A model generated the notes under the pieces. That model was not told the DNA's origin, made no database searches, and saw only the letters and a program-made list of their open reading frames with translations. The position numbers were made by a program, and so were the translations under genes. 64,000 nt of DNA, taken from the NCBI GenBank assembly GCA_018302705.1, contig JAGVZI010000012.1, forward strand, positions 332 through 64,331. The letters are read 5' to 3'. Below are positions 44,914 through 63,324 of this stretch, piece by piece. This DNA is from Candidatus Woesearchaeota archaeon (lineage in GTDB: Archaea; Nanobdellota; Nanobdellia; SCGC-AAA011-G17; ARS1403). Within the stretch, counting starts at the first letter, position 1. Every line of letters begins with the position of its first letter.

Positions 44914-44924
44914 GAGATAGAGAA

Positions 44925-47123: not shown

Positions 47124-48070
47124 CGCTCTAAAATCTTTTCAATTTCATAGTTTTTTCTAGCATCATAGTAAATCCTTATTTGTATTTCAGCTAAGAAACC
47201 AAACATAATAAATAAAATTCCAATTATTACAAGGAATATGGAAGCTAGCAACAAAGGTCCAATATCTGCCTCACCAAATCTTAAATAATATAATATGGTA
47301 GTAATGGTTTTTATTATACCCAAAACAAGTCCTACTAAGATTAATATCCCCCCTATAAATCCAAAGAAATGCAAAGGTCTTCTTGAATAATCCAGCCAGA
47401 ATTTTACATAAAATAAATCCAAAAATCCTTTAAAAATTCTTTTTGCATTATATTTGCTTTTCCCATGCTTTCTCTCACTGTGCCTTACTTTCACTTCTCC
47501 TATTCTAAATCCGTACTGAGAAATAATTGCAGTTATGTACCTGTGCATATCACCATATAGGTTTAGGTTTTCCACAGCCTCCTTTCTATAGGCCTTCAAA
47601 GAGCACCCAGAATCATGTATATCCTCCTTTATCAAAAATCTTCTAAATGAATTAGCAATCTTTGAAAAAATTCGCTTTTCAAGTGGATCTATTCTATCAA
47701 ATCTCCAGCCACTGACAACATCATAGCCATCTTCGATTTTTTTTAGCAATCCAGGAATATCTTCAGGATGATTTTGCAGATCCCCGTCCATCGTAACAAT
47801 GACATCTCCGCTAGAATACTTAAGTCCTGAAACTGTAGCAGCGCACTCTCCAAAATTTTTCCTATGTTTTATAACCTTTACATGCATATCTCTTTTATAA
47901 ATTTCTTCTAGAATTGAAAAGGAATTATCTTTACTTCCATCATCAGTAAATATGATCTCGTAATCTACACCGATTTTATTCATAACCTTGCTTAATCTAG
48001 TATATAATTCAATGAGGTTTCCTTCTTCATTATATACGGGTATTGCCACTGAAATTTTTTTGAATTTCAT
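47120..48070 (-). CDS. GT2 polyprenol/dolichol-phosphate glycosyltransferase (GtrB/DPM1-like) with C-terminal TM helices
   Basis: ISVAIPVYNEEGNL...FTDDGSKDNS...TMDGDLQ...; two C-terminal TM helices. Confidence 0.8.
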   Translation of the reverse strand: MKFKKISVAIPVYNEEGNLIELYTRLSKVMNKIGVDYEIIFTDDGSKDNSFSILEEIYKRDMHVKVIKHRKNFGECAATVSGLKYSSGDVIVTMDGDLQNHPEDIPGLLKKIEDGYDVVSGWRFDRIDPLEKRIFSKIANSFRRFLIKEDIHDSGCSLKAYRKEAVENLNLYGDMHRYITAIISQYGFRIGEVKVRHSERKHGKSKYNAKRIFKGFLDLFYVKFWLDYSRRPLHFFGFIGGILILVGLVLGIIKTITTILYYLRFGEADIGPLLLASIFLVIIGILFIMFGFLAEIQIRIYYDARKNYEIEKILER

Positions 48071-48079
48071 AAGACGTCT

Positions 48080-49702
48080 TCAAACAGAGAATATTATAAA
48101 TTTATTGTTCTCATAAGCAACTTGAAAATTTAGCTTCTTAGGTTTATCAAATATAATGTAATCAATATCATACTCTTCTTTAATTTTTAGTATATCCTCT
48201 TCAGAAAGTTCATTATAGTTTTCAATGCATTTTTTGCTTTCTTCAAGAAAATTACAATTTATGAAATTCAGCCTTTTTAAGTATTCTGGAATTATTTCTT
48301 CTCCATTTGGGTTTAAAATTATCCCCAACCCAAGATCCTTGCCACTTACAAAAATGCTTCTTTCAGAATAAAATCTAAAGGGTTTGTCATAGCGAGTAAC
48401 AAATAATGCATCCTTTTTAGTATTGTTTTTACTCCAAAGTTGGATGTCAATCCATTCATCATAATAATCTGTCCAAGGCAAATTAACATGGTTCTCCCCC
48501 TTCCAAATATTCGCACCTATCGAGCCAATAATTAAAAAAACTAGAACTGAAGAAATCAAAGCTGCCTTAAACCACTTTGTTTTTTTAAAATATCTAAGGA
48601 TTATAAAAGCAACTATAACATATAATAGGATAGCAAGATATACCTTCATATTCCCGTTGTAAAACAAAGCAACACCTAGAAAGATTCCAAGAAGATTGTG
48701 AGAAAATTTAGGCTTCATAATAAGACCATAGATATAATTTGAAGAATATAAAAGGGCAAATATTACAAGAAATGGAGCACTTCTAAGCAGATGTAGTTGT
48801 ATTATGCTTCTAATCGGCAGAATTTCAGAGAACACAAATCCAAGGATGAGCATAATAAATACAGCCAGTGAAAAAATAGCAATAGTCCTATTATAGATTT
48901 CTCTTTTCTTATTTCTAAATTTATATGCAAGAAAGAATAATATCATAATTGGAATGAAATTTAACCATACAGATATAGCCCATGTTGAAGGAAAAAGATG
49001 CAACCCTGCTCTAGTCCTGGCAACATCGATCCATAAAGGACTAGGAATGAGACTTTCCTTTTTTCTGCCAAGCACAGTAATTAAAAAAGGCAAGGAAGCT
49101 ATTATTAAAGAGCCAAAAGATAAAAATATTTTAAACTTTCCTATTTTATTAAATTTAAAAAGAAAATAGAGTAAAAACATTGATAGAACAAAAATGCTAG
49201 TCATTCCATGAAAATTAAAACTTAATCCAAGAAAGATAAAAGACCATATGTATCTTCGTTTCAGAAATAAATAAATTGCCAGCAATAAAAATGGAAAGAC
49301 AAAAGTAGAATGCTGAAGTGCATAATCCCTAGTATGTGCTCCTCCTATAGTGTTTTTTGGAATAATAGAAAATAACACAGATAAATAAGAAACATAATCA
49401 TTGTTGAATAATAATTTAGTTAGCTTAAAAATCATAATGAATGTAAAATATAATAAAAAGAAATAAAGGAAGAAGCTAGTCCACTCTAATTTATCTCCAC
49501 TCAATCTTACTAATAAGTCATAAAAAAATCCAGGATATTCTGTATTATGAATGTAAAAATCCCTAGTATAAAGGGTGCTGTCTATCTTAGCCTTAGCCAA
49601 AGAAAAATAATTTGTATGGTTTTCTTCTCCAAACCTATATCCTTCTATTAAAATTGCAAAAATTGTTAGTAATAACAGGAATATTAGATATTTATTTTTC
49701 AT
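48080..49702 (-). CDS. Large polytopic membrane protein with a C-terminal soluble domain (hypothetical; possibly a glycan polymerase/GT-C-like)
   Basis: More than 10 TM helices, about 150-aa C-terminal hydrophilic domain. Confidence 0.35.
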   Translation of the reverse strand: MKNKYLIFLLLLTIFAILIEGYRFGEENHTNYFSLAKAKIDSTLYTRDFYIHNTEYPGFFYDLLVRLSGDKLEWTSFFLYFFLLYFTFIMIFKLTKLLFNNDYVSYLSVLFSIIPKNTIGGAHTRDYALQHSTFVFPFLLLAIYLFLKRRYIWSFIFLGLSFNFHGMTSIFVLSMFLLYFLFKFNKIGKFKIFLSFGSLIIASLPFLITVLGRKKESLIPSPLWIDVARTRAGLHLFPSTWAISVWLNFIPIMILFFLAYKFRNKKREIYNRTIAIFSLAVFIMLILGFVFSEILPIRSIIQLHLLRSAPFLVIFALLYSSNYIYGLIMKPKFSHNLLGIFLGVALFYNGNMKVYLAILLYVIVAFIILRYFKKTKWFKAALISSVLVFLIIGSIGANIWKGENHVNLPWTDYYDEWIDIQLWSKNNTKKDALFVTRYDKPFRFYSERSIFVSGKDLGLGIILNPNGEEIIPEYLKRLNFINCNFLEESKKCIENYNELSEEDILKIKEEYDIDYIIFDKPKKLNFQVAYENNKFIIFSV

Positions 49703-49734
49703 TGAACCTCTATATAAAGGCTTTAGTAAACCTT

Positions 49735-50496
49735 CTAAATATTTTTTAATGGCCGATCTTCAGCTTTCTTTGATGCACCCATAGCAAAATATCCGCAAAG
49801 CATTGGAAATGTTTTAGATAATGAAAAGTCCAGACTAGGAGAATAGATGAATCTAAAAGGATATGGGATGACACTTCTTCGTTTTGAAAAATTTATGATG
49901 AAGCCTTTATTTAAGAGCATAGATTTTAACTCATTTAATTTATAAAAGTTATTTCCCTCTTTCACGCAGTTATTTGAGACTCCAAGAAATTTTAACAATA
50001 TCCTTATAAAAATGTTTTCTATATTCGGCTCACAAATAACAAATACACCTCCAGGTTTCAAAATCCTATTTGCCTCCCTAATTACTTTTTCAGCTACATT
50101 TTTATTAAAATGGTTAAAAGTAACAAAAATTACAACGAAGTCGAAGTGCTCATTTTCGTAATTGATGTTGGTAGCAGATCCCAATACGAATTCGGTTTTA
50201 GGATAAATAACTCTAGCAAGTTCAATAGACTTATCAGAGATGTCTAGGCCTACAGTTTTTTTTGTAATGCTATTAAGATAGTCTGCAGAATGCCCTATCC
50301 CGCATGCTATCTCTAATCCGACAAGCTCATTTAAGCTTTTTTTAAAACAGGAGTTGAGAATTTCAATAGTAATGTTTTCTTTAACTTTTGCATAATATTT
50401 ATATCTTTTCCATCTGTTAAAGTAAACTTCTTCACATATTCTATTAAAAGATTCTCGTTGCATGTCTTCTATAGTAGTATTCATACTAAGGTTCAA
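49735..50496 (-). CDS. Class I SAM-dependent methyltransferase
   Basis: VGLEIACGIGHSADYL (motif I), LKPGGVFVICEP. Confidence 0.7.
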   Translation of the reverse strand: MNLSMNTTIEDMQRESFNRICEEVYFNRWKRYKYYAKVKENITIEILNSCFKKSLNELVGLEIACGIGHSADYLNSITKKTVGLDISDKSIELARVIYPKTEFVLGSATNINYENEHFDFVVIFVTFNHFNKNVAEKVIREANRILKPGGVFVICEPNIENIFIRILLKFLGVSNNCVKEGNNFYKLNELKSMLLNKGFIINFSKRRSVIPYPFRFIYSPSLDFSLSKTFPMLCGYFAMGASKKAEDRPLKNI

Positions 50497-50521
50497 CTAA
50501 CAAGAAGAATTATAAACATTA

Positions 50522-51964
50522 TTATTGAGAAATTACAGTTACTGCTGCAGAAGCCAATTCCCTGAATTCTCTAAAAGATCTTACCTTAGAAATCATCTTG
50601 AAAACATAACTAGGTCTTAAGTAGAAGCTCCTATAAGCTTTTTTCAGCCATTCATCTAGCTCCTTGCTGGATAGTTTACATCCGGGGACTCTTATCTCAT
50701 CACTCTCAGTAGTCTTTCCTACAGTGAAATCTTTCCAGTAATCTCTTCCAATCTCATCTATGACATCATCGTACAAAGGTGTGCCAGCAATTGGAGTTAA
50801 TTTATTGATCTGCACATAATCCAAGTCTAAGCTTTTAGCAAATTCAATAGTCTCTTTTACAGACTCTTCCGTTTCTCCTGGAAATCCAATAATAAAGAAA
50901 CCGAAAGGAGACATGCCTGCTTCCTGTGTCCATTTAACAGCCTGCTCAATTTTCTCTCGTGGCATATATCTCTTCATTTTATGTAAAATCTCTTCATTAG
51001 CAGATTCAATGCCGTAGTTAACTCTCACACATCCTGCTTTCGCAATTAATTGTAGCAATTCTTTATTCACGCAGTCTGCTCTAGTTCTAATGCTGAATGT
51101 AAGTCTTTTATTTAACCCTCTTCTTATGATTTCATTGCAAATCTTTTCAGCTCTAGGTTGATTTATTGTAAATGTCTCGTCATAGAATATAATCTCTTTT
51201 ATTCCATATTTATCAGCACATTCCTCCATCTCATCTACTACATCCTTGTAATCCCTATAAAAAGCAGTCTTGTCTGTGCTGCAATATGTACACTTGTAAG
51301 GGCAACCAGTAGCAGTTAGCATAGTGCTTACAGGCCTTCTTTTAGAAATCAATGTAGAATATCTCTCATTGGGCAGCAAATCCCTGGCAGGATGAGGTAT
51401 GCCTTTCCAATAATCAGTTCTTCTAGGTCTTGGAGCTGTTATTATAATTTTACCTTCTCTGTCTTTATATCCAATGCCTTTAACTTTGCTCAAGTCTTTT
51501 TTACTCTTAAGGGATTCCATCAGCTCAGGCAAGGTCTCCCAAGCTTCTCCAATTACAATATAATCAACAACATTGTACATCTCTAAAGTTTCTTTAGGAT
51601 ATGACAAGGTATGCGGTCCGCCAAGAATCATTTTAATGTTTAGCTTTGACTTGATATACTCCATCCATTCAACAGTTATCTTCAAGCTCGCAGTAATAAC
51701 TCCAAACATCAAAAAATCAGGATTGTGCTCTTTTATCTTTTCAATCATCTCTTCTTTTGTATAATGGATAGCATAGCCGTCGATTATTCCAACCTCGTAT
51801 CCTCTATTTCTCATGTAAGCAGCCAAATAAGCAACACCTAGAGGAGGAAGAACAACGCCTTTCTTGGAGTAAAGTTTATGAATCTTCTTAGTATAATACA
51901 ATCTCTGCATTTGTTGAGGTGGTTGTATAAATAAAATCTTCATATTATCTCCAAAAGTTAACAA
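50522..51964 (-). CDS. B12-binding radical SAM protein
   Basis: N-terminal B12-binding module; TATGCPYKCTYCS. Confidence 0.8.
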   Translation of the reverse strand: MLTFGDNMKILFIQPPQQMQRLYYTKKIHKLYSKKGVVLPPLGVAYLAAYMRNRGYEVGIIDGYAIHYTKEEMIEKIKEHNPDFLMFGVITASLKITVEWMEYIKSKLNIKMILGGPHTLSYPKETLEMYNVVDYIVIGEAWETLPELMESLKSKKDLSKVKGIGYKDREGKIIITAPRPRRTDYWKGIPHPARDLLPNERYSTLISKRRPVSTMLTATGCPYKCTYCSTDKTAFYRDYKDVVDEMEECADKYGIKEIIFYDETFTINQPRAEKICNEIIRRGLNKRLTFSIRTRADCVNKELLQLIAKAGCVRVNYGIESANEEILHKMKRYMPREKIEQAVKWTQEAGMSPFGFFIIGFPGETEESVKETIEFAKSLDLDYVQINKLTPIAGTPLYDDVIDEIGRDYWKDFTVGKTTESDEIRVPGCKLSSKELDEWLKKAYRSFYLRPSYVFKMISKVRSFREFRELASAAVTVISQ

Positions 51965-52115
51965 TTGTTAAATAAATATTTGGATACTAGACTTTATATA
52001 TTTTTCTCTCAGCAAGTTTATTTTTAGACCGAGTTACATAATGAAGGAACTAATAAAAACCAAATCCATTAAAGAGATTATAAGAAAAACTAAGGCAGGA
52101 ATAAAAATTCTAAAT

Positions 52116-52997
52116 TCATAATTTAGTGCTTAACACTTCTTCGGCAATTCTCTTATAAGGTATAATCTTTATCTGTAATTCTCTTGTTTTATCAATGATA
52201 CCTTTATGAATTTGGAGTTCAGGATCATATTCCATAACTGCCCAAGGATGTAAGCACAGAGATATATAAATTAGTTTGTCTCTGGACATCTCAATTGCAC
52301 TTTTCATGAGACTTGTATAGTGTTGAAGGATTTCTTCAGGGTCACTAGGAGTTTGTTTTAGATACTTGTGCGCTTTTTCAGCAGTAAAAATATCATCATG
52401 CCAGCCGTGCGAGGGAATCTCCACTATGTTATTATATCCGATATTATTATATGTATGTGGTTGTCTTTGATGTGTCAGTTTTGCTTCAATAGAATCTTCG
52501 CCTCTTAAATCAGATGAAACAAAACGTAATCCGGTTTTACTTAATGCCTCAACCATTTCAGGGAGATCTGATAAGTCATGGTGATATCCCATGGGGGTTC
52601 TTAATCCTATAGGATCGATATCTAAAATTTTTTTTAGAGTTTGATTTGCTTTTTCAACATCGTCTACAAATTGTTGCCATGATACAATGGGTTTACCTTC
52701 ATTCCTTTTAATTCTCCTAAAAATTAGATGAGAATAACTATGCTGTTGTATATCATTCAATCTACTTCTACAATATATCCCTCTAAGCTCGTCTTTAGAA
52801 AAATCTCGTAAACATTTTTCTAAATAATCTCCAAGAATAAAAAAAGTTCTTGGCACATTTTCTTCATCTAAAAAATCAGAAAGCCGGTTTATAAATCTTA
52901 ATTGCTCTCTCCTAAATTGCTTACCATTATAAGAATCAGCAAATATTCCATAAGGTCTTTCAGTATCATATCCAAGAGATAGTATCACATTAGACAT
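52116..52997 (-). CDS. Polysaccharide deacetylase-like (CE4-like) protein
   Basis: ILSLGYDTERPYG...TFFILGDYLE resembles the CE4 TFDDG/...F.vG pattern; weak. Confidence 0.4.
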   Translation of the reverse strand: MSNVILSLGYDTERPYGIFADSYNGKQFRREQLRFINRLSDFLDEENVPRTFFILGDYLEKCLRDFSKDELRGIYCRSRLNDIQQHSYSHLIFRRIKRNEGKPIVSWQQFVDDVEKANQTLKKILDIDPIGLRTPMGYHHDLSDLPEMVEALSKTGLRFVSSDLRGEDSIEAKLTHQRQPHTYNNIGYNNIVEIPSHGWHDDIFTAEKAHKYLKQTPSDPEEILQHYTSLMKSAIEMSRDKLIYISLCLHPWAVMEYDPELQIHKGIIDKTRELQIKIIPYKRIAEEVLSTKL

Positions 52998-53006
52998 TTT
53001 ATTTAT

Positions 53007-53966
53007 CTATCTAGAAAGGTAATTCCTTTTAATCCATTCAGCAGTTCTATCAATACCTTCTTCAAAGCTTATAGATTCTCTAAAGCCTAATTGTTCTATT
53101 TTTGTAGTATCTGGAACTGGGTAGTAGTTTTCACCGAGCCTTTCTGGACGATAAGTAATCTCCAGTCCGGGATTATATTTCCTAATTAATTTTTTAGCCA
53201 AATCCTCTATTGAGATCCTTGTTTTGGAAGCAACATTATAAACTTCCCCAACAGTTTCAGATTCATGCCGAAGCATAAGCATATTTGCTTCTACAATATC
53301 ATCAATATATGTAAAGCATCTGAGTTGCTTTCCACCAAAAACTATAGGGCTTTCTCCTTTTAGGATTCTACTCAAGAAAATACTAATTACTCCTACCTCT
53401 CCTTCAGGGTCCTCTCTCGGACCAAATACATGAAAATATCGTAATACTCTAACATCTATTCCAAAATTCTTAGCATAATATTTACAATAAGACTCTACAG
53501 CATTTTTACTTATCCCATATACCGTGCTTGGATTTTTAGGACTCTCCTCTTTCATGGGGGTCCTATCTATAGAACTACCAAGAACAGATCCAGTAGAAGC
53601 ATGAATAATTTTGGTCCTAGAAGACCCTCTAGCTGCTTCTAGTATCATTGAACTACCCAAAACATTAGTTTCAATATCGGAGAAAGGGGCTTTTAAAGAA
53701 TGAACTAGCTTAGCAGCAGCTTCATGGAACACATAATCACTTTTTTGAACTAGATATCTTGTAAGTGCATAATCCGTTATAGATCCTTGAATAAATTCCA
53801 CTCTTTGATCGTTAATGGCATCTTTTAAGCGTTCGACTTTACCGCTATTAAGATTATCTAATATCTTAACCTTTCCAGCTCCCTCTTTTAAACATCTATC
53901 TACTAAATGGCTACCAATAAAACCTGCACCACCAGTAACCAGAACTGTCTTTTCTTTCAGTAACAT
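53007..53966 (-). CDS. NAD-dependent nucleotide-sugar epimerase/dehydratase
   Basis: VLVTGGAGFIGSHLVDRCL, YGISK (YxxxK). Confidence 0.8.
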   Translation of the reverse strand: MLLKEKTVLVTGGAGFIGSHLVDRCLKEGAGKVKILDNLNSGKVERLKDAINDQRVEFIQGSITDYALTRYLVQKSDYVFHEAAAKLVHSLKAPFSDIETNVLGSSMILEAARGSSRTKIIHASTGSVLGSSIDRTPMKEESPKNPSTVYGISKNAVESYCKYYAKNFGIDVRVLRYFHVFGPREDPEGEVGVISIFLSRILKGESPIVFGGKQLRCFTYIDDIVEANMLMLRHESETVGEVYNVASKTRISIEDLAKKLIRKYNPGLEITYRPERLGENYYPVPDTTKIEQLGFRESISFEEGIDRTAEWIKRNYLSR

Positions 53967-54121
53967 TTTAATTGAAATTAAAAAACAGGTTTTTTAAATA
54001 TATTGCTTATTAAGAATATATAACCCTCAACTATATTAATAATTTCGGGATAACACACAAACTCGACTTTGCCAAAACTTTTAAATAAGGTTATTTTGAA
54101 GAACTTGATTGGGGGGTAACT

Positions 54122-55063
54122 ATGTACAAACATTTAAAGGTCTCGCTTGTTATTCCGGCATATAATGAAGAGAAGCTAATAGTCCCAACACTAGAAAACG
54201 TACCTAAAATAATAGACAAGGTTTATGTTGTAGATGATGCTAGTACAGATAATACCCATTTAATTGTTAATAAATTAATCCAAAAAGATAAACGGATAAC
54301 TCTCCTCAGGCATCAAGCCAATAAAGGGACTGGAAATGCAATTATAACTGGATATAAACAATCTTCTAAGGATGGACATGACATAGCTGTAGTCATAGGT
54401 GGAGATAATCAGATGGATCTTGCCGATTTAAATAATTTTCTTGAGCCAATAGCAAATAATGAAGCAGACTACACGAAAGGGAATAGGTTCCTTTTAGGGG
54501 GGAATGCTTATACAGACATGCCAAAAAAACGCTTTTTTGGTAATGCTATCTTGACCTTCATGACCAAATTTGCATCTGGCTATTGGAAAATTTTTGATAC
54601 TCAAGATGGCTATACTGCAATATCTAAGAGGGTTATAGATAAGGTTGATTGGTCGAGAGCATCAGTAGGATATGGTTATGTTTCAGACTTCTTGATTCTT
54701 TTTAATGTCTATAACATTCGAGTCAAAGATGTTCCAAGAAAGGCAATTTACTTAAAAGGAGAAAGACAATCACAGATTAAAATTTTTAGATATATGATAA
54801 CTGTTGGTCCTAGAATTATTAAAAAATTTTTCTGGAGAATAAATACAAAATATCTAATCCAAGATTTCCATCCGCTTATTTTATTTTACTATTTCTCTTT
54901 TGTCTTGTTGCCCTTAGGCACAATCTTAGCATTTAAAGTAGGCTATCAAGGGCTGACTGGGCTAGCTTCCGGAAACCTGGCAGTTCTTTCGGCCCTATTG
55001 CTAATCATGGGCACACAATTCTTACTTTTTGCAATTTTGTTTGATATGCAGGCAAATCAATAG
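54122..55063 (+). CDS. GT2 polyprenol-phosphate glycosyltransferase with C-terminal TM helices
   Basis: VSLVIPAYNEEKLI...VDDASTDNT...GGDNQ; C-terminal TM pair. Confidence 0.8.
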   Translation: MYKHLKVSLVIPAYNEEKLIVPTLENVPKIIDKVYVVDDASTDNTHLIVNKLIQKDKRITLLRHQANKGTGNAIITGYKQSSKDGHDIAVVIGGDNQMDLADLNNFLEPIANNEADYTKGNRFLLGGNAYTDMPKKRFFGNAILTFMTKFASGYWKIFDTQDGYTAISKRVIDKVDWSRASVGYGYVSDFLILFNVYNIRVKDVPRKAIYLKGERQSQIKIFRYMITVGPRIIKKFFWRINTKYLIQDFHPLILFYYFSFVLLPLGTILAFKVGYQGLTGLASGNLAVLSALLLIMGTQFLLFAILFDMQANQ

Positions 55064-55190: not shown

Positions 55191-56377
55191 ATGAACTATG
55201 ATATTATTAGATTATTAGATAAATATATGGGGGTACCATTATGTTTTTTGTTTTCTATAATAGATAGCTTATTCCCAAAAGGTAAAAAAAGAGAAATAAA
55301 AAATATCCTAATCATAAGATTTTGGGGGATTGGCAGCATAATACTCTCTTCTCCGACATTAAAGACTATTAGGGAAAATTATCCACAAGCTAAAATTTAT
55401 TTCCTAACAATGAAGAGAAATGAAGGGGTTTATGACGGCAGCAATTTAATGGATGAGATTATCTATTATAATTTCAAAAATTATTTCAATGTTTTTAAAG
55501 ATTTTTTTAAAGTAATTTTCTACATAAGGAAAAAAAAGATTGACCTGGCAATTGATTTAGAGCATTTCTCGAAATTTTCGAGCATAGTCACTTATTTAAG
55601 TGGAGCATGGGAAAGGGCAGGTTTTTTCACAAAGGGGCAACATAGAGAGGGGGTATATACAATTAAGGTTCCATTCAGTGATTATCATCACGTGGTTGAA
55701 AACTTTTTAAATATTCCACTATATATAGGTTTGAAATCAAACTCTGGTAATCTTGTTAAACTTCCTGTGACCGATAAGGAAAAGATTTATATAAATCAAT
55801 TATTAGAAAAGAATAAGGTAGGCAAGAAGGATCTAATAGTGGGGATAAATATCAATTCAAGCGATTTTGCAATTGAAAGAAGATGGCCAAAAGAAAAATA
55901 TGTGGAACTGGCTGATAAAATATTAAAAAAGCATCCGAATGCAAAAATATTTTTTATAGGAGCTAAGTTTGATAAAGAATTTGTGCAATCTACAATAGAT
56001 ATGATTCGGGACCATTCAAAATGAAAGAAGAAAAAAAGAGGGTAATTAATCTGGCTGGAGAAACTAACTTATTAGAGTTGGCAGCGTTTATGGAGAAATG
56101 TGATTTGTTTATCTCCAATGATTCAGGCCCATTACATCTGGCAACAGCAATGGATGTCCGAACAGTATCTTTTTTCGGACCAGAAACCCCTGCATTATAT
56201 GGCCCAAGAGGAAAGAAGCATTCCATTTTATACAAGAAACTGCCCTGTAGCCCATGTATCACGGTTTATAACAATAAGACGGTTCGCTGCCCATATGATT
56301 CAAGGTGCTTAAAAACAATAGAAGTAGATGAAGCATTCAAAATAGTTGAACAAAAATTAAAGCAGATTAAAAAATGA
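55191..56377 (+). pseudogene. GT9 heptosyltransferase-like gene split by a single-base frameshift (ORFs 55029-56024 and 56021-56377)
   Basis: GT9 N-terminus ILIIRFWGIGSIILSSPTL and C-terminus INLAGETNLLELAAF...NDSGPLHLATAM lie in adjacent frames; inserting one A in the A4 run 56017-56020 restores a continuous ...IRDHSKMKEEKKRVINLAGE... Confidence 0.65.
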
Positions 56378-57450
56378 AAAGGCATATTGTTCTCGCAAAG
56401 AAAATAATTGAATCTAATTTTAAATATCTGGATTTTCCATATAAATTAACATTGATTACAACTTATAACTGCAACAGCAAATGTTTAACTTGCAATATCT
56501 GGAAAATAGATGATTTCTCCCAAGAGTTAAAACTGGAAGAATATCAAGAATTTTTTAAGAAATCAAATGAATTCTCGTGGGTGGATATAAGTGGAGGGGA
56601 GATATTCTTGAGAAAGGATATTGTTGAACTAGCTAAGGCAATAACAGACAATTGTAAGAACCTATATATGCTGCATTTTCCAACAAATTCCCTTCTGCCT
56701 AAAAGGGTTATAGAAAAAACAAAAGAAATTTTAGAACTGAAACCGAATAAATTAATTGTAACTGTCAGCTTGGATGGCAATGAGGGACTACATGATAAGA
56801 TAAGAGGAGTGAAAGGCAACTTCGAAAAATGCATGCAAACTTATGAGGGATTAAAAAGTATGGGTGTTGAGACCTATTTTGGTTTTACTCTATCTAATTA
56901 CAATTTAGGTATGATTGATAAAACTTTTGAAGCTGTTAAAAGGAGGTTTAATCACATCACATGGGATGATTTTCATATGAATATCTCAAATTCTTCAGAT
57001 CATTATTATGGAATTAAGATGAGACAGCTTACTACTGCCGAAGTTGTTTCTGAAGTAAACCGGTTTATTCAAAAGAGAGGAATTCCAAGGACACCTGTTC
57101 AAATACTAGAATATAGGTATTTAAGCAAAATCGAAGAATTCTTGAAAACTAGAAGAACCCCTGTTACATGTAAGGCTCTTTCATCTTCATGTTTCTTAGA
57201 TCCAAAGGGGGATGTTTATCCTTGTAATTCTTTTAGTAAAGTAATGGGGAATATAAGGAACTATGATTATGATTTAAGGAAGATATGGAACCTGCCTTCT
57301 ACTCAAGAGACAAGAGAAGGAATAACTAAAGGTAAATGCCCGCATTGCTGGACTCCATGTGAGGCATATCAGAGTCTTTTAGGAAATTTATTTAATCAGG
57401 AGGTAAAGCATGAAGTTATTGATGATAAACCCCCCATCCAAGCATGCTGA
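56374..57450 (+). CDS. Radical SAM protein with a C-terminal SPASM/twitch-like Cys cluster
   Basis: TYNCNSKCLTCN (CxxxCxxC); C-terminal CKALSSSCFLDPKGDVYPCNS...CPHCWTPC. Confidence 0.75.
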   Translation: MKRHIVLAKKIIESNFKYLDFPYKLTLITTYNCNSKCLTCNIWKIDDFSQELKLEEYQEFFKKSNEFSWVDISGGEIFLRKDIVELAKAITDNCKNLYMLHFPTNSLLPKRVIEKTKEILELKPNKLIVTVSLDGNEGLHDKIRGVKGNFEKCMQTYEGLKSMGVETYFGFTLSNYNLGMIDKTFEAVKRRFNHITWDDFHMNISNSSDHYYGIKMRQLTTAEVVSEVNRFIQKRGIPRTPVQILEYRYLSKIEEFLKTRRTPVTCKALSSSCFLDPKGDVYPCNSFSKVMGNIRNYDYDLRKIWNLPSTQETREGITKGKCPHCWTPCEAYQSLLGNLFNQEVKHEVIDDKPPIQAC

Positions 57451-58906
57451 TGGCTCAACGAATCCAAGAATATATTTACCAATTGGTTTGCTTTATCTAG
57501 CATCAATGCTGGAAAAACACAATCATCAAGTAAAAGTATATGATGGAAGGTTAAGTGCAAAGATCACAAAGGACTCAAATGGAAACATTCATTTTGGCGA
57601 TAGTTGGGAAGAAGTTAGAAAGGTAATTCAGGATTTTAATCCAGAAATAGTTTGCATATCCTGCATGTTCTCAAACCAAAGCTCACAGGCATTTAAGACA
57701 GCCGAGATTGCAAAAGAAATAAGCAAAGATATTCTAGCGGTCGTTGGGGGACCGCATCCATCTGTTGATACTGCATTTGTAAATAATAAATTTGTTGATA
57801 TCCAAGTATCAGGAGAAGGAGAGTTCACCATCCTTGACATTGTTGATTATTTTAATGGTAAGAAGAAACTAGATGAAATAAAGGGTATTGCATTCAAAGA
57901 AAATGATGAAGTAAAAATTATGAAAAAAAGAGAATTTATTGATGCTCTTGATGAAATCCCTTTTCCGGCATACCATCTAGTTGATATGGAGGAATATTTT
58001 AGAAAACAAAATCACGGTTATGGGGCAAGACCATTAATTAGGGGAAAGAGAGTTGTATCCATAATCACTAGTAGAGGCTGTCCTTATGAATGTACATTCT
58101 GCTCAATATTCTTATCAATGGGAAGAAAATTCAGATATCATTCTCCCAATTATGTTTTAAATCATATTCAATTATTAAAAGAGAAATATGGAGTAGACTT
58201 TATTCTATTTGAAGATGACAATATGTCTTTAAGATTAAAAAGATTTGACGAAATTTTAGAGGGTATGATCTCAAGAAGGTTAAATGATGTTAAATGGGGC
58301 GTAATTAATGGATTAAGAGCAGATACTTTGAGCAGAGAGATGATGCTCAAGATGAAGCGAGCTGGCTGCTCATATGTAGTGATAGCGATCGAATCAGGAG
58401 TTCAGAGGGTTGTTAATGACGTGATTAAAAAATATCTTGATTTAAAGAAAGTAGTCAGAGTTTGTGAGGATGCAATGCAGGTTAAAATGGAGATGTATGC
58501 ATATTATATAGTTGGATTTCCTGATGAAACAATGGATGAGATAAAGCAGACAATAAACTTTGCAATGATGCTTGATGATAAATATGGTGTATTCCCCATG
58601 GTTAACATAGCAACACCGTTGTATGGGACTGAACTCTATAGCAGAGCAGAAGAAACAGGATCTCTTGTGCAGGAGGTAACAGAAGAAGGCTTGTTAAAGG
58701 CAACACAAACTCACGGCTCAGGATTGATACAAACTTCTGAATTTACATTTGAAGATTTGCAAAAAGAAAATAAAAGATTGAATAGGAACATTTTCAAGAA
58801 TCTTGTTAAAAGATCAATTCTTCATCCTCCTTTACTGGTAAATTATATCTCTACTACGATTAAAAACCCATATGTAATAAAGAAATATGTCTTCGGGAAA
58901 GGTTGA
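57410..58906 (+). CDS. B12-binding radical SAM protein
   Basis: N-terminal B12 module; TSRGCPYECTFCS; 41-nt overlap with the upstream rSAM-SPASM gene. Confidence 0.8.
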   Translation: MKLLMINPPSKHADGSTNPRIYLPIGLLYLASMLEKHNHQVKVYDGRLSAKITKDSNGNIHFGDSWEEVRKVIQDFNPEIVCISCMFSNQSSQAFKTAEIAKEISKDILAVVGGPHPSVDTAFVNNKFVDIQVSGEGEFTILDIVDYFNGKKKLDEIKGIAFKENDEVKIMKKREFIDALDEIPFPAYHLVDMEEYFRKQNHGYGARPLIRGKRVVSIITSRGCPYECTFCSIFLSMGRKFRYHSPNYVLNHIQLLKEKYGVDFILFEDDNMSLRLKRFDEILEGMISRRLNDVKWGVINGLRADTLSREMMLKMKRAGCSYVVIAIESGVQRVVNDVIKKYLDLKKVVRVCEDAMQVKMEMYAYYIVGFPDETMDEIKQTINFAMMLDDKYGVFPMVNIATPLYGTELYSRAEETGSLVQEVTEEGLLKATQTHGSGLIQTSEFTFEDLQKENKRLNRNIFKNLVKRSILHPPLLVNYISTTIKNPYVIKKYVFGKG

Positions 58907-59545
58907 ATGGCAGAAAAAAACAAATGGGGTGAATTCTTTCAGAAAAAAGGATTTCTATCTTTATTTATAATATATTTAGACAGGATTTATTTTTCAAAGA
59001 GGGTTAAAAATTTTTTGGTTAAAAATTTAAAAGAAGGAGACTCTATATTAGAGCCAGGATGCGGCTCGGGGTATGTATCAATACAATTTGCTAAAGAGGG
59101 ATATAATGTCACATTTCTAGACAATTCAGATATTGCATTAAAATTAGTTAAAGAACAATACCCAAAAGCAAATACAATTAAAGCCGATATAAATAAAATG
59201 CCGTTTAGGAGCAGTACTTTTGATCTGACATGGAACTATGGAGTAATTGAACATTTTGATAATCCGGAGAAAGTTGTGAAAGAAATGATAAGGGTGACAA
59301 AAGAGCAAGGAAAACTAATCTTAGTAGTCCCGGCATATATGTCACTGATGCATTTTTTGTATAAAATACTAAATGCTTTTAATCTTTGGACAATAGATAA
59401 ACAAATATTTTTCAAGAAGAGCGAGCTCAAATCTTTATTAAAAAAAGCCGATTTAGATAAGATAGAGATTTCAAGGCCTATACTATCGCTAGGATTATCC
59501 TTATTTGCTTCAGCAACTAAAAAGCAGCAAGAAAGTCCAAAATAA
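58907..59545 (+). CDS. Class I SAM-dependent methyltransferase
   Basis: ILEPGCGSGYVSIQFAKEGYNVTFLDNS. Confidence 0.7.
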   Translation: MAEKNKWGEFFQKKGFLSLFIIYLDRIYFSKRVKNFLVKNLKEGDSILEPGCGSGYVSIQFAKEGYNVTFLDNSDIALKLVKEQYPKANTIKADINKMPFRSSTFDLTWNYGVIEHFDNPEKVVKEMIRVTKEQGKLILVVPAYMSLMHFLYKILNAFNLWTIDKQIFFKKSELKSLLKKADLDKIEISRPILSLGLSLFASATKKQQESPK

Positions 59546-60737
59546 ATATCATTGATATACCAATTACTATCAATGGGATCATTCTTTTTTTGATTTGTGA
59601 AAATACAAGCCCGGAACTAATTGCAATAATTGGGTCTAAAGGGATAAAATATCTTCCGGCGCTTTGTGTTCCAAAGCAAACACCATTTTTGATTAGATAA
59701 ACTGGATCACACCCTAACAAAACTGTCAAGCCAAATTGAACTAGAGGAACTAATAACAAGAAATTTAGATTTATTTTATCTGAGTTATTATAGAATTTTT
59801 TAATACCAACTAGAGTAGTTATAATAAGTGTTATACTGGCTAGTCCTACAAGGAAAAATATTTTCTCCTCTCCACCATACACTCCACCCCAAAATCCTCT
59901 TGCTAGATGAGCTAATCCGGAAAATAATTCTCTTTCCTTAAAATAGCTAGTGATATCTCCAAAAGGACTGTCAAATAGGATTTTGTTTCTGATTAGAACA
60001 CCACCCCCAATTACTATTGCAGTTAGAAGAGAATATGAAAGTAATTTTGCTTCATTATATTTTCTATTGAAATATTTAAAAATGATGTAAATTGCTAAAG
60101 CTATAAAGATTGCAATGGCAGATAATCTTGACAATAAGCCTAGGCCTGCAAAAACTCCAAATATTATCGCATTTTTCTTATTTTTATTAACTGCGAATCT
60201 GATAAAAAAGTAAAATATTAGAGAATAAACAAAATAATACATGATATCATTATGAATAAAGCCGCTATGGTACAAGTGAACTGGTAAGAAAGCAAAAATA
60301 ATCAAGGAATAGGTAACAAAACTCTTTTCATTTTCAAAATAGTTAGAGATCTTTTTTAAGGACAGGAAGAAGAATATATTAGCACAAATCATTAAGACAA
60401 CAGAAAGAAATTCAAGCAACAATAATCCCTTACCCGGTGAAAGATTGTAGACAAATCCCCCGAGAAAATAATACAAAGGACTATGGAACATACTTCTAAT
60501 ATTTTCTTTTGATAGATCTCCGTTTATACCCGCATCAGAATTAGTCTGAACTTCTCTAGGCAGATTCCAGGTATTAGCAACATATTTGATTGTATTAAAA
60601 TGCCAATAAAGATCAGAAGAAAGCTTTATTTCTTTTTCAATTGTATTCCCCTCTTTATAAGAATTTATAACTGGATAGGAATATATCGAAAGACTTATTA
60701 ATAATATTAAGATAAACCTCTTGTAATCATCTTCCAT
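59517..60737 (-). CDS. GT-C-fold-like polytopic membrane protein (PMT/ArnT-like)
   Basis: About 11 TM helices, HSPLYYFLGG loop motif resembling the one at 43219. Confidence 0.45.
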   Translation of the reverse strand: MEDDYKRFILILLISLSIYSYPVINSYKEGNTIEKEIKLSSDLYWHFNTIKYVANTWNLPREVQTNSDAGINGDLSKENIRSMFHSPLYYFLGGFVYNLSPGKGLLLLEFLSVVLMICANIFFFLSLKKISNYFENEKSFVTYSLIIFAFLPVHLYHSGFIHNDIMYYFVYSLIFYFFIRFAVNKNKKNAIIFGVFAGLGLLSRLSAIAIFIALAIYIIFKYFNRKYNEAKLLSYSLLTAIVIGGGVLIRNKILFDSPFGDITSYFKERELFSGLAHLARGFWGGVYGGEEKIFFLVGLASITLIITTLVGIKKFYNNSDKINLNFLLLVPLVQFGLTVLLGCDPVYLIKNGVCFGTQSAGRYFIPLDPIIAISSGLVFSQIKKRMIPLIVIGISMIFILDFLAAF

Positions 60738-60788
60738 AACTAGTCGGTCATAGAATAATTAATAAAATTATCCAATTAAAATAGTAAA

Positions 60789-62207
60789 ATGCCTCCAAAA
60801 CAAAAAAAAGTATTGCTTGCTATAACCTGGGATTATTATGGCGCTTATAAGACCAAGCTAGCGGTGGCTGTTCCTAAAATACCTAATTTAGCATTGGCAA
60901 CAATTGCAGCACCTTTGATGGAAAAAGGTTTTATTGTAAAGATATTTGACCCGAATATAATTGAGATAGATCCAAAAATAGCTTTCTTAAAGATGCTTAA
61001 TGACTTTCATCCAGACTATGTAGCGATTTCATTCCCCTCAGCATTATATTCAAAAGCAAAAGAGGCATTTAACATAGTTAAGGACTTTGATAAAAATATA
61101 ACTACTGTTGGTGGAGGTCCGCATACTTCTGTAGAGCCCAAGAAAACATTGGAAGATATGAAAAACATGGATGTTGCAATTGTGGGAGAAGGGGATTATA
61201 CATTATTAGAAATGGCTCAGGGCAAAAATCTTAAAAATGTTAAGGGTATAGCTTATAGAAAAGGTAAGAGAACCTTTACCAACCCAACAAGGAATTTGAT
61301 AGAGGATATAAATATGCTTCCATTTCCCCGCTGGGATTTATATGATTTATCAAAGTATCACAGCCCAAGAATAAGCTCTAAAAAGTCTCCGATAGGTTCT
61401 GTAGAAACCAGCAGGGGTTGTGCATGGGGTTGCACTTATTGTAATAAAGGAGTTTTTTTCAAGAAATGGAGAGTTAAAACACCAAAAAGAGTAGTCGATG
61501 AAATGGAATATATGTTGGATATAGGCTTCAAGGAAATAAGGATTGAAGATGATATGTTTACCACGGATAAAAAAAGAGCAAAGCAGATTTGTGATGAAAT
61601 AATAAATAGGGGGTTGAAATTTCCTTGGAATTGTGGTAATGGTATAAGGGCAGATTCTGTTGATTTGGAGTTGCTGAAAAAGATGAAGCAGGCTGGTTGT
61701 TACAGCATTAGTATTGGTGTTGAATCAGGCGATCAAAAAATTCTAGATAATATAGACAAAGGAACAACAGTAGAAAAAATAAGAACTGCTTTCTCATTAG
61801 CTAAGCAGGCAAAAATAAATACCGTAGCATTTTTTATGATTGGTTTACCTGGGCAAGATGAAGAGTCAATAAACACTTCAATAAAACTTGCAAATGAAAT
61901 AAAACCAGATGCATTGAAAGTAGGAATCACAGTTCCACTTCCAGGAACTACATTATACAATCAGGTAAGGGCAGATGGAAGAATACTGAATGAAGACTGG
62001 GATAATTATAATTACAATGATGTAACCTCAACTTATCGGCATGACACCATGGATTGGCCCATAATAAATAAATATTTAAAAATTTTTTACAGAAAAACAC
62101 TTCTAAAACCTTGGTTTATATGGAATAGAATAAGAAAAGGAATCCTCTCTGGAGATTTATTTTATGATGCATACTATTTTCTAAAAACCATTAGATATGG
62201 TTGGTAA
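60789..62207 (+). CDS. B12-binding radical SAM protein
   Basis: N-terminal B12 module; TSRGCAWGCTYCN. Confidence 0.8.
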   Translation: MPPKQKKVLLAITWDYYGAYKTKLAVAVPKIPNLALATIAAPLMEKGFIVKIFDPNIIEIDPKIAFLKMLNDFHPDYVAISFPSALYSKAKEAFNIVKDFDKNITTVGGGPHTSVEPKKTLEDMKNMDVAIVGEGDYTLLEMAQGKNLKNVKGIAYRKGKRTFTNPTRNLIEDINMLPFPRWDLYDLSKYHSPRISSKKSPIGSVETSRGCAWGCTYCNKGVFFKKWRVKTPKRVVDEMEYMLDIGFKEIRIEDDMFTTDKKRAKQICDEIINRGLKFPWNCGNGIRADSVDLELLKKMKQAGCYSISIGVESGDQKILDNIDKGTTVEKIRTAFSLAKQAKINTVAFFMIGLPGQDEESINTSIKLANEIKPDALKVGITVPLPGTTLYNQVRADGRILNEDWDNYNYNDVTSTYRHDTMDWPIINKYLKIFYRKTLLKPWFIWNRIRKGILSGDLFYDAYYFLKTIRYGW

Positions 62208-62256
62208 TTCTTCTATCTGATGTTATAGATCAAGTTCCATTCTTTATCTCTGAAAA

Positions 62257-63324
62257 TCATTTAATAGGAAGATAAACCTCTTGATGTAGCGCACTTGATT
62301 TGTAAATCGCTTCAGCTAATTCTAAACTCTTTCTTCCTTCAAAGCCATCAACTAAATGTCCCAGGTCAACTACACTTGCTTGATAACTATCATTTTCTAA
62401 AATACAGGATTTTACTCTTTGATAGAATTGCCTATGTGCAAAATTTGGAATCGATGCAGGATTTGTTAATCTGCTACTATATGCTCCATCTTCATTCGTA
62501 TAATCTCTGAATTCCCATAACTCTGTTTTATCAGCTGCCAATCCCCCAATTTTAACAGAACCATTTTTGCCATATATCGCAATAGCTCCTTCTAAATTTC
62601 TCGGATATGTGCAAATTGTAGCATCTATTGAGCCTAATGCCCCACTTTCAAATTCTACCGTAGCAACACCTGTATCATCAGTTTCAATGCCAGGATGACC
62701 TAAATTATTCACAATAGAATACACTCTTTTTATTGGTCCTCCAAACCACCGAAGTAAATCAAGATGGTGTATTGCCTGGTTTAGAAAAATCCCTCCATCC
62801 ATATTCTTAGTTCCTCTCCAAGAACCAGAACTAAAATATTCTTGGTCTCTAGTCCATTTCAAGACAACACTTAATTGATATATCTCTCCAAAGCGCCCTC
62901 TGTCTAATGCCTTTCTTGTCTCTATAACGGGAAGATGATGCCTGTATTGTTTCACAACAAATAACCTTGTACTGTTCTTGTCACAAGCTTCAATCATATC
63001 ATCTGCATCTGCTAAATTAAGGGCCATTGGTTTTTCTACAATCACATCTTTTCCAGCGTCGGCTGCTTCAATTGTCATTTCAGGATGTAATCCCGAGGGG
63101 GTGCATATAATAACAACGTCAATATTTTCATTTCTCAACATATCTTGATAGTTCCCATAGCCTATAGAAGGATTATATTTATTGACAACTTCTCCAAGTC
63201 TTTTTTCATTAACATCGCACACAGCTACAAGCTTGGATTCAGGTAGTTGTTCAATTGCATCCAAATGCTTTGAAGATATTCTTGCACATCCAGCTAAAGC
63301 AAAATTAAGATAATTTTTCATCAT
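62257..63324 (-). CDS. Gfo/Idh/MocA-family NAD(P)-dependent oxidoreductase (sugar dehydrogenase-like)
   Basis: N-terminal Rossmann KLVAVCDVNEKRL; EKPMALNLADADDM consensus. Confidence 0.75.
   Translation of the reverse strand: MMKNYLNFALAGCARISSKHLDAIEQLPESKLVAVCDVNEKRLGEVVNKYNPSIGYGNYQDMLRNENIDVVIICTPSGLHPEMTIEAADAGKDVIVEKPMALNLADADDMIEACDKNSTRLFVVKQYRHHLPVIETRKALDRGRFGEIYQLSVVLKWTRDQEYFSSGSWRGTKNMDGGIFLNQAIHHLDLLRWFGGPIKRVYSIVNNLGHPGIETDDTGVATVEFESGALGSIDATICTYPRNLEGAIAIYGKNGSVKIGGLAADKTELWEFRDYTNEDGAYSSRLTNPASIPNFAHRQFYQRVKSCILENDSYQASVVDLGHLVDGFEGRKSLELAEAIYKSSALHQEVYLPIK

Follow-up and report, generated by a model that had tools for sequence, protein, structure and literature searches.

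Why should a single stretch of archaeal DNA hold several radical S-adenosylmethionine (SAM) genes with cobalamin (B12)-binding domains among genes for the transfer of sugars, and on what would their products act? We asked this of a 64,000-nucleotide (nt) stretch, hereafter the window, of contig JAGVZI010000012.1 (assembly GCA_018302705.1, positions 332 to 64,331 of the forward strand), which belongs to a groundwater metagenome-assembled genome (MAG) of Candidatus Woesearchaeota, in the DPANN archaea. The window has a GC content of ~33% and an archaeal gene content, with SRP54, FtsY, ribosomal proteins S15 and S3Ae (archaeal-type) and an S-layer-family protein. Its proteins are found in NCBI as MBS3151196 to MBS3151263, under locus tags J4443_. 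A first-pass annotation, made from the letters alone, had proposed that the radical SAM (rSAM) genes form a dedicated system acting on the surface glycan, its lipid carrier or the surface proteins.

We concluded that the rSAM proteins are probably cytoplasmic tailoring enzymes of cell-surface sugars, themselves probably linked to a carrier lipid, and that they work in glycosylation modules of the three-component type. Relatives of two of the proteins (40-50% identity) lay within glycan clusters in 11/11 independent contexts, among which were other Woesearchaeota, Parcubacteria and unbinned metagenome contigs. That such gene sets come back in unrelated genomes argues against chance co-location, and because no dispersal was seen, the proposed functional tie between the radical enzymes and surface-glycan genes held.

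Radical SAM genes and the two modules of the window

Domains were called with Pfam against the gathering score (32.1 bits for the B12-binding domain, PF02310), family identity was judged with NCBIfam against the curated cut-off, and CxxxCxxC was sought with a motif scan. The genes at issue, called below by their first coordinate, were as follows.

56374-57450, + strand: SPASM-domain rSAM; Radical_SAM 43 bits, SPASM (PF13186) 37.4 bits against a gathering score of 21.5; CNSKCLTC at residues 33-40
57410-58906, + strand: class-B (B12-type) rSAM, marker family of a conserved GT9 cassette; B12-binding 63.8 bits, Radical_SAM 68.2 bits; CPYECTFC
60789-62207, + strand: second class-B rSAM; B12-binding 53.8 bits, Radical_SAM 81.3 bits; CAWGCTYC
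50522-51964, - strand: third intact class-B rSAM, in the neighboring module; B12-binding 73.3 bits, Radical_SAM 107.8 bits; CPYKCTYC
23113-24420, - strand: rSAM with a degenerate B12-domain-like N-terminus; Radical_SAM the only Pfam match; CTYGCNYC; adjoins a short-chain dehydrogenase/reductase (SDR) gene at 22322-23116
6514-8011, + strand: disrupted class-B rSAM gene; B12 domain (52.4 bits) in one frame, rSAM domain in another
3999-4418, + strand: standalone B12-domain-like open reading frame (ORF) of 139 amino acids; Pfam 19.7 bits, under threshold

The first-pass annotation had counted five rSAM genes with N-terminal B12 modules. All five B12-type genes carried CxxxCxxC and a Radical_SAM (PF04055) match above threshold, but PF02310 reached its gathering score in only four of them (57410, 60789, 50522 and 6514); 23113 had no PF02310 match. 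A custom hidden Markov model (HMM) of the family's N-domains matched two short fragments of the 23113 protein (E 7e-7), and we read this N-domain, from its sequence, as a degenerate Rossmann-like module comparable to that of AprD4. Rossmann-like N-domains need not bind cobalamin, as AprD4 and ArsL illustrate (PMC12931638). By domain architecture 57410, 60789 and 50522 are class-B enzymes, with cobalamin use as a prediction only.

The frameshift reported in 6514-8011 was present but was not a simple one. Compared with an intact 517-residue relative (P0138, 82-91% identical), the frame changes at ~6974/6975 and residues 155-172 are missing, a deletion of ~54 nt or about 18 codons; the gene is probably a pseudogene. 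The standalone B12 fragment at 3999-4418, although below the Pfam threshold, aligned along its full length with the B12 domain of 6514 at 28.6% identity (E 2e-19) and matched the custom HMM (E 2e-12). It appears to be a genuine remnant, or else a standalone B12-like domain or small Rossmann protein.

These genes had been described as adjacent paralogs, which proved misleading. The rSAM proteins of the window are mutually 23-32% identical, so that they represent distinct families rather than recent duplicates, and they fall into at least two separate conserved modules (45783-55063 and 55191-63324) with two outliers elsewhere. The 57410 family alone has >5000 relatives (best non-self identity 48%). 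For 57410 and for 60789 alike, hundreds of proteins at 40-52% identity were found in other phyla, such as Aenigmarchaeota, Bathyarchaeota, Hodarchaeota, Nanoarchaeota, Omnitrophota, Parcubacteria, Elusimicrobia and Scalinduaceae; those of 60789 at 44-52% were in Woesearchaeota, Parcubacteria and Elusimicrobia. Each intact rSAM tested had relatives at 45-50% identity in other phyla, which indicates that the rSAMs are old, separate families assembled in this region.

Counted from the GT-C and flippase-like genes at its start, the first module spans 43219-55063, and the second, downstream, 55191-63324; 23113 (degenerate) and 6514 (broken) are outliers. The 50522 gene stands in the first module, and the SPASM, 57410 and 60789 genes in the second. 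The remaining module genes are listed here, with transmembrane segments abbreviated as TM.

43219-44913, + strand: GT-C (PMT_2) membrane glycosyltransferase; PMT_2 50.8 bits, TM scan
44925-45815, + strand: flippase-like membrane protein (LPG_synthase_TM / TIGR00374); TIGR00374 52.1 bits against a cut-off of 43.2
45783-47123, - strand: flavin amine-oxidase-family oxidoreductase (PRK07233 family); NF005560 451.5 bits against a cut-off of 252
47120-48070, - strand: GT2 polyprenyl-phosphate glycosyltransferase, ArnC/PgfS-like, 2 C-terminal TM; NCBIfam ArnC 193.8, PgfS 148.6 bits
48080-49702, - strand: polytopic DUF6798 protein, ~13 TM, candidate GT-C-like transferase; Pfam, TM scan
49735-50496, - strand: class I SAM methyltransferase; Pfam
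52116-52997, - strand: polysaccharide deacetylase family protein, in the Pfam family of ArnD; Polysacc_deac_1 47.4 bits
53007-53966, - strand: SDR nucleotide-sugar epimerase/dehydratase; NCBIfam dTDP-glucose 4,6-dehydratase 165 bits, below cut-off
54122-55063, + strand: GT2 polyprenyl-phosphate glycosyltransferase, AglJ/PpgS-like, 2-3 C-terminal TM; Pfam, NCBIfam, TM scan
55191-56024, + strand: GT9 (heptosyltransferase-family) N-terminal part, 278 codons, first gene of the operon; Pfam Glyco_transf_9
56021-56377, + strand: GT9 C-terminal part, 118 codons, donor-binding, with a conserved CxxC...C...C tail; NCBIfam heptosyltransferase II positions 234-336
58907-59545, + strand: class I SAM methyltransferase, beginning directly after the 57410 stop codon; Pfam Methyltransf_11 77 bits
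59517-60737, - strand: GT-C (PMT_2) membrane glycosyltransferase, ~9 TM; PMT_2 35.0 bits, NCBIfam LA_3751/LA_3752 family; 29-nt overlap with the methyltransferase gene
62257-63324, - strand: GFO/IDH/MocA NAD(P) sugar oxidoreductase, possible sugar 3-dehydrogenase; Pfam, partial NCBIfam matches to inositol 2-dehydrogenase and UDP-GlcNAc 3-dehydrogenase

Pfam bore out the surroundings as first described (GT2, GT9, GT-C/PMT_2, SDR epimerases, a Polysacc_deac_1 protein) and both class I methyltransferases. The ArnC model matched 47120-48070 over its full length, yet below the equivalog cut-off, and the protein is thus ArnC-like, not ArnC. The protein of 44925-45815 falls outside the GtrA/GtcA families and is a putative flippase by the TIGR00374 'flippase-like domain' only. 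The TM scan gave 0 TM for the rSAMs, 2-3 C-terminal helices for the GT2 proteins and 9-14 segments for the GT-C proteins.

The region 55191-59545 consists of five head-to-tail ORFs, namely the two GT9 parts, the SPASM rSAM, 57410 and the methyltransferase. Their junctions (ATGA overlaps, a 41-nt overlap and a 0-nt gap) mark them as a single operon, and the overlapping stop and start codons predict co-expression. The 41-nt overlap (57410-57450), which the first-pass annotation had noted, is real; an orthologue alignment traced it to a C-terminal tail of ~11 residues in the SPASM ORF that is not conserved. The GT-C gene at 59517-60737 is convergent with this operon, and 60789 is divergent from the GT-C gene.

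Recurrence of the gene sets in other genomes

We inspected 11 contexts, seven around relatives of 57410 (L001, L004, L007, L009, L091-L093) and four around relatives of 60789 at 44-50% identity (L094-L096, L177). Their gene contents were as follows.

L004, L007, L009: B12-rSAM, GT9, B12-rSAM (45-46% to 57410), SPASM (42-47%), methyltransferase, large membrane protein (YfhO in L004)
L001: Wzy, GT9, methyltransferase, B12-rSAM (48% to 57410), B12-rSAM, PMT_2, Wzm/Wzt transporter
L091-L093 (40-45% to 57410): rSAM among PMT, GT2, flippase-like, GT4, GT9, methyltransferase, Wzx, DegT and SPASM genes
L094: GT2, SPASM, PMT_2, rSAM
L095: PMT_2, GT9, B12-rSAM, SPASM, flavoprotein
L096 (Parcubacteria): SPASM, GT4, deacetylase, epimerase, membrane protein, GT2, rSAM, flavoprotein; mirrors window 45783-55063
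L177 (Woesearchaeota): GT2, PMT_2, flavoprotein, two B12-rSAMs, PMT_2, methyltransferase, GT2

The recurrent partners of the 57410 family were GT9, a methyltransferase (7/7 homologous contexts), a SPASM rSAM, a second B12-rSAM and a GT-C protein. Families from the upstream module recurred as well: that of the flavoprotein (45783-47123) beside B12-rSAM genes in L095, L096 and L177, that of the flippase-like protein (44925-45815) next to GT2, PMT and B12-rSAM genes in L091, and that of the deacetylase in L096. A metagenome scan with the SPASM family found relatives (38-45% identical) in archaeal loci. In ~7 of these the neighbors were a small GT2, a carbamoyltransferase and a PMT_2 GT-C, and B12-rSAM or GT9 was mostly absent. 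The constant theme is a cytoplasmic transferase together with a GT-C transferase, and the radical enzymes are interchangeable accessories.

In a scan of a genome collection, the 57410 family mostly retrieved other B12-rSAM subfamilies (<=40% identity) and missed the source genome; rSAM arrays beside GT2, PMT_2 and flavoprotein genes were frequent. Arrays of 3-8 adjacent B12-rSAM genes occurred in many MAGs of Bathyarchaeia, Omnitrophota and others (L015, L017, L031, L036 and L086 among them), and GT2 or SPASM genes frequently accompanied them, so that several rSAM genes side by side are no peculiarity of the window.

These data bear on the idea that the co-location is meaningless or decaying, that is, that the window is a variable island of surface genes with unrelated or dying rSAM genes. 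One rSAM gene is disrupted, one B12-like ORF is a fragment and the cassette GT9 is frameshifted, all as that idea would have it. However, five rSAM ORFs are intact, stop and start codons overlap in a manner that indicates co-expression, and the same combinations were found across domains and phyla in every context inspected. We give this explanation hardly any credence.

The nearly matching gene sets of L096 and window 45783-55063 (deacetylase, epimerase, membrane protein, GT2, B12-rSAM, flavoprotein) suggest cross-domain exchange of surface-glycan modules between bacteria of the candidate phyla radiation (CPR) and DPANN archaea. L096 is ENA ERZ27254739, with a Parcubacteria-type protein (P0191); its run accession is numerically near ERZ27254749 and ERZ27254845, which carry contigs of the window archaeon.

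Family, fold and probable substrate of the radical enzymes

In three-component systems, a sugar that a GT2 enzyme has placed on polyprenyl phosphate is exported by a flippase, and its transfer outside the cell is the work of a GT-C enzyme. Examples are GtrA/B/C, ArnC/ArnD/ArnT, CsbB/GtcA/YfhO, the Pgf system, Citrobacter ORF12-15 and mycobacterial decaprenylphosphoryl arabinose (DPA) with DprE1/E2. The window resembles them in its ArnC/PgfS-like GT2 with C-terminal TM helices, putative flippase, GT-C proteins and ArnD-family deacetylase; PMT_2 exceeded its gathering score in both 59517-60737 and 43219-44913, and the TM-anchored GT2 proteins are those of 47120-48070 and 54122-55063. It differs in that it also houses as many as three rSAM families together with methyltransferases and a flavoprotein, and in that one module has GT9, not GT2, as its cytoplasmic transferase. 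In the literature searched we found no description of rSAM/B12-dependent tailoring in such modules, or of this cassette, and a 2026 review of class-B enzymes lists no glycan-module enzymes.

From the gene sets, their conservation and the folds we infer the following substrate and chemistry. A GT2 (or GT9) enzyme would load a sugar onto a polyprenyl-phosphate carrier, or onto a lipid-linked glycan, at the cytoplasmic face. The GT9 donor would probably be ADP-heptose, because genes for its synthesis lie at 14393-17777, and the sugar of the GT9 cassette would then be a heptose. The B12-rSAMs would carry out radical chemistry on unactivated sugar carbons, either C-methylation or a deoxygenation or rearrangement as in AprD4 and HpnJ; the SPASM enzyme would perform a radical oxidation or epimerization, and the class I methyltransferases O- or N-methylation of the sugar. 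The deacetylase and the flavoprotein would likewise tailor the carrier-linked sugar ahead of export. The product would be flipped and then transferred by GT-C enzymes to S-layer or other surface proteins, or to glycans, outside the cell.

Less likely, though far from fanciful, is that the rSAMs act earlier, on nucleotide-activated sugars such as ADP-heptose or UDP-N-acetylhexosamine before any transferase, in the way of deoxysugar tailoring in antibiotic pathways. SDR epimerase/dehydratases, a GFO oxidoreductase and the ADP-heptose pathway are nearby, the rSAMs are soluble, and AprD4, the nearest solved structure, acts on a free aminoglycoside pseudodisaccharide. However, the recurrent partners (ArnC-like GT2, flippase-like and GT-C proteins) use lipid-linked donors, and an ArnD-family deacetylase accompanies them. 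ArnD and DprE1/E2 are tailoring enzymes that act on lipid-linked sugar. The same holds for the Citrobacter SDR epimerase ORF13, which tailors a lipid-linked sugar in the cytoplasm before export in a three-component system (PMC11127046).

No rSAM of the window attained the curated cut-off of any named NCBIfam family (HpnJ, BchE, PhpK/Sden_1168, QCMT, AprD4, AhbD/NirJ). The best partial matches were these.

57410: Sden_1168 P-methyltransferase (NF038361), 204 bits against a cut-off of 575
60789: HpnJ (TIGR03471), 218.6 bits against a cut-off of 577.6
50522: BchE (TIGR02026), 195.7 bits against a cut-off of 481.35; HpnJ second, 179.6
23113: HpnJ, 163.4 bits against a cut-off of 577.6; AprD4 126 bits
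SPASM 56374: AhbD, 70.6 bits against a cut-off of 500

Further scores were likewise below their cut-offs: HpnJ 146.7 bits for 57410; BchE 185.2, 141.9 and 131.8 bits for 60789, 57410 and 23113; PhpK (TIGR04479) 112 bits against 600 for 57410; and AprD4 92-126 bits against 500. All scores to MiaB/RimO and HemN-like families were <=61 bits against cut-offs of 205-357. The housekeeping identities BchE, HemN-like, MiaB/RimO, QCMT and BzaD were accordingly rejected, a check that the first-pass proposal withstood, and the 'BchE' labels on relatives in JGI annotation are generic. P-methylation or other phosphonate chemistry was also rejected for 57410, the window having no phosphoenolpyruvate mutase or phosphonate genes and the Sden_1168 score being so low.

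The nearest solved structures by sequence were AprD4 and 9CCB (E 1e-15 to 1e-20), the latter being the glutamine methylase of methyl-coenzyme M reductase (PMC12931638). An AlphaFold2 model of 57410 (pLDDT 89.7, pTM 0.89) retrieved AprD4, MgmA/QCMT, TsrM, CysS, OxsB and TokK in Foldseek (TM-score 0.62-0.70, identity 15-18%); the modeled architecture is class-B, with no close characterized relative. AprD4 (PDB 6fd2), the 1,2-diol dehydratase of apramycin biosynthesis, acts on a sugar and was the closest solved structure by sequence for 57410 and 60789, and by fold for 57410; its cobalamin-free Rossmann-like N-domain is a possible model for that of 23113. The likeness has limits, as identity is 18% and 57410, 60789 and 50522 retain a Pfam-significant B12-binding domain. 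The window rSAMs share with the sugar- and lipid-modifying class-B enzymes GenK, GenD1, MoeK5, Fom3 and HpnP/HpnR the B12-binding Rossmann domain, the CxxxCxxC barrel (fold modeled for 57410) and a sugar-biosynthesis context. They differ in the 15-18% identity of 57410 to any solved class-B enzyme and in their setting, since instead of antibiotic clusters they occupy primary surface-glycan modules of DPANN, CPR and other anaerobes; they are candidate methyltransferases at most.

Candidate chemistries for the window enzymes are C-methylation, deoxygenation, oxidation, epimerization and ring contraction. C-methylation is the commonest class-B reaction. It is only one of the possible options here, as the best partial matches include the non-methylating HpnJ, BchE and AprD4.

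The HpnJ matches raise the question of a different end product. In a pathway like that of HpnI/HpnK/HpnJ or calditol synthase (Cds), whose roles are described in PMC13459092, a GT2 would add an N-acetylhexosamine to a lipid, deacetylation would follow, and an HpnJ-like ring contraction would yield a carbocyclic cyclitol head group, that is, an ether-linked membrane-lipid head group and not a transferable glycan. HpnJ was the best match of 60789 and 23113 and the second best of 50522, and the partner set is similar: 50522-55063 holds analogues of HpnA (SDR), HpnI (GT2) and HpnK (deacetylase function), and the flavoprotein is a weak HpnE match. Yet all scores (163-219 bits for these three) were far under the HpnJ cut-off, and the window has no hopanoid or glycerol dialkyl glycerol tetraether (GDGT) genes. 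A ring-contracted sugar phosphate would be unfit as a GT-C donor, whereas GT-C genes are the most constant neighbors; GT-C and flippase partners imply a transferable donor, not an end-product lipid. The membrane lipids of Woesearchaeota and Parcubacteria also differ, and the 60789 family is common to archaea and CPR bacteria at ~44% identity, which points to a substrate that both domains have, such as a carrier-linked sugar, and not to domain-specific core membrane lipids. The deacetylase belongs to what we take to be a Pfam family other than that of HpnK, which also counts against a cyclitol product. We consider such a product improbable, and hold to the tailoring of a transferable, probably carrier-linked sugar.

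The SPASM enzyme invites comparison with peptide maturases. B12-rSAM, SPASM rSAM and methyltransferase are a classic tool-kit for peptides made on the ribosome and then post-translationally modified (RiPPs), and all three could act on a ribosomal peptide or surface protein, in RiPP-like or S-layer maturation, with the product then glycosylated. In keeping with this, NCBIfam gave partial matches to SPASM peptide maturases and to RiPP C-methyltransferases (ApyD, TIGR03975), a C39 peptidase domain gene lies at 20811-21212, and S-layer and large surface proteins lie at 32688-42428. However, CxxxCxxC starts at residue 33 of the SPASM protein, leaving no space for an N-terminal RiPP recognition element (RRE) domain, and every RiPP-family score fell far short of its cut-off, with RiPP SPASM families at <=53 bits against 340-850. 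There is no room for a precursor gene in 55191-59545 or across 59545-62257 (short flanking gaps not searched), the cassettes in L001-L010 lack a conserved small ORF, and the C39 gene is >30 kb distant. The lack of an RRE and of a small ORF in the packed operon sets the enzyme apart from AlbA, SkfB, PqqE and CteB. Action on surface proteins, one of the targets first proposed, thus has no specific support, and we think a peptide or protein substrate highly improbable.

The SPASM enzyme is more like BtrN, HygY, BlsE, AhbD and NirJ, with which it shares a short N-terminus, an early CxxxCxxC, auxiliary-cluster cysteines (six invariant C-terminal cysteines in the orthologue alignment) and the absence of an RRE; it has a weak sequence match to BlsE. 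Twitch/SPASM sugar chemistry (oxidation, epimerization), as known from BtrN and HygY, serves as our model for it. It departs from these enzymes in its scores (~70 bits or less against cut-offs of 300-650), in its shortened cysteine spacing (Cx5Gx4C and Cx2Cx3C) and in its conserved partners, which are GT2/GT-C or GT9/B12-rSAM genes. A further idea, that the rSAMs dock to the membrane by amphipathic C-terminal helices, was dropped when a hydrophobic-moment scan proved unremarkable.

Several points weigh against the tailoring of lipid-linked sugars. The evidence for these families and modules is genomic only, and gene neighborhood does not separate a lipid-linked from a nucleotide-sugar substrate. 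Neighborhood counts were made without a random-locus control, and relatives of 57410 at 38-39% identity (L011-L014) showed no recognizable cassette partners in a BLAST screen. The best partial HMM matches are to enzymes of other chemistries or substrates (Sden_1168 P-methyltransferase, HpnJ, BchE). The frameshifted GT9 and the broken fourth B12-rSAM imply that this genome may be losing parts of the system. Lastly, DPANN archaea are not, to our knowledge, known to make cobalamin, and the cofactor supply is unexplained.

With these reservations, we tentatively suggest that DPANN, CPR and other anaerobes may have widespread, undescribed surface-glycosylation modules in which B12 and SPASM rSAMs rewrite carrier-lipid-linked sugars before GT-C display. 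Class-B rSAMs are among the largest pools of enzymes of unknown function, and characterized members come almost entirely from antibiotic, cofactor and lipid pathways. If the suggestion is true, C-methyl branching, deoxygenation, epimerization or carbocycle formation would be sugar chemistries new to surface glycans, and the surface of cobalamin-auxotrophic symbionts would be linked to B12 from hosts or the community. Thousands of relatives, generically named or misnamed "BchE", would gain a testable substrate hypothesis. The genomic rule would be that a polyprenyl-phosphate GT2 or a GT9 on one side and a GT-C transferase on the other enclose a B12-rSAM, which a SPASM rSAM and a methyltransferase may or may not accompany, and it would predict unusual, possibly C-branched sugars on DPANN and CPR surfaces. 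We know of little surface-glycan chemistry described for DPANN and CPR organisms, whose cell-cell attachment depends on the surface. Unknown class-B enzymes in polysaccharide clusters would not astonish a specialist; the conserved cassettes point to unusual surface chemistry in these groups. A question that follows is how cobalamin and reducing power are supplied to four to six radical enzymes in minimal genomes.

The split GT9 gene and other features of the window

The cassette GT9 gene (55191-56377) is split by a 1-nt frameshift at ~56018-56024, in a short A-run (…tca aaa tga aag…). Both halves match the GT9 family, and the C-terminal part, whose start overlaps the preceding frame by ATGA, is 52% identical to the C-terminus of the L001 GT9. 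A tblastn search with three cassette GT9 proteins showed that the two frames abut with 0 residues missing. The identical junction was found in two separate metagenome contigs from other samples (L005, L006), that is, the frameshift is fixed in the population, and the 118-residue C-terminal ORF is recorded on 19 contigs. The split gene may be a fixed pseudogene, a two-piece enzyme or one whose expression depends on slippage. The best PDB relatives of the cassette GT9 were 3tov and WaaF 1psw; TibC was absent from this sequence search, and a BAHT/TibC-type protein heptosyltransferase, an idea taken from the four-cysteine C-terminus, was rejected.

Three GT9 loci lie within the 64 kb, the other two with intact genes at 2407 (2407-3543) and 12969. 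The latter belongs to 12969-17777, an apparent ADP-heptose pathway in an archaeon, which includes a fusion of an HldE kinase domain with a cupin (329 bits to rfaE domain I), a fusion of a cytidylyltransferase-like domain with a haloacid dehalogenase (HAD) phosphatase, an SDR epimerase, two NUDIX proteins and GT9 genes.

The gene at 5873-6463 (+ strand), which the first-pass annotation had offered as a possible ferredoxin-like reductant partner, encodes a Fer4_15 4Fe-4S (29.4 bits) and PterinBD-DUF4346 protein by Pfam; in NCBIfam it partially matches MtrA-like and dihydropteroate-synthase-like proteins in their C-terminal region. The protein is a possible redox or cofactor partner and, instead of a plain ferredoxin, may be one that handles corrinoids or pterins; the rSAM gene that it adjoins (6514-8011) is the disrupted one.

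Upstream of the SDR gene and degenerate rSAM at 22322-24420, the standalone Peptidase_C39 ORF (20811-21212, 133 residues) is followed by two ORFs without a family match (to 22339). At 18352-20661 are a Fic/DOC-domain protein and a 426-residue protein in which a phosphoribosyltransferase domain is fused to one of the purine/uridine phosphorylase family.

Four small glycosyltransferase-like ORFs (25007-26468, 31632-32405, 35026-35820) match Pfam Anp1, the family of a yeast Golgi mannan polymerase subunit, and its gathering score (28.8 bits) was exceeded only by the 31632 (37.8) and 35026 (29.6) proteins. Anp1-like ORFs flank the S-layer-family gene at 32688-34955; the family is unusual in a DPANN archaeon. 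Farther along, DUF4956 and VTC-domain (polyphosphate-related) genes at 39127-39816 and 42443-43147 flank an 868-residue protein with a weak pectate-lyase-like match, and 36464-38956 is an 830-residue ORF without a family match. Both large proteins are probably surface proteins and candidate glycosylation targets.

Rfam and tRNA scans of the window found three tRNAs and nothing else. Two are ordinary (Thr-TGT at 30110, Val-GAC at 32445), and the third, a 95-nt tRNA at 20699-20793 by Rfam (54.7 bits) that is absent from the ARAGORN output, is probably an intron-containing archaeal tRNA.

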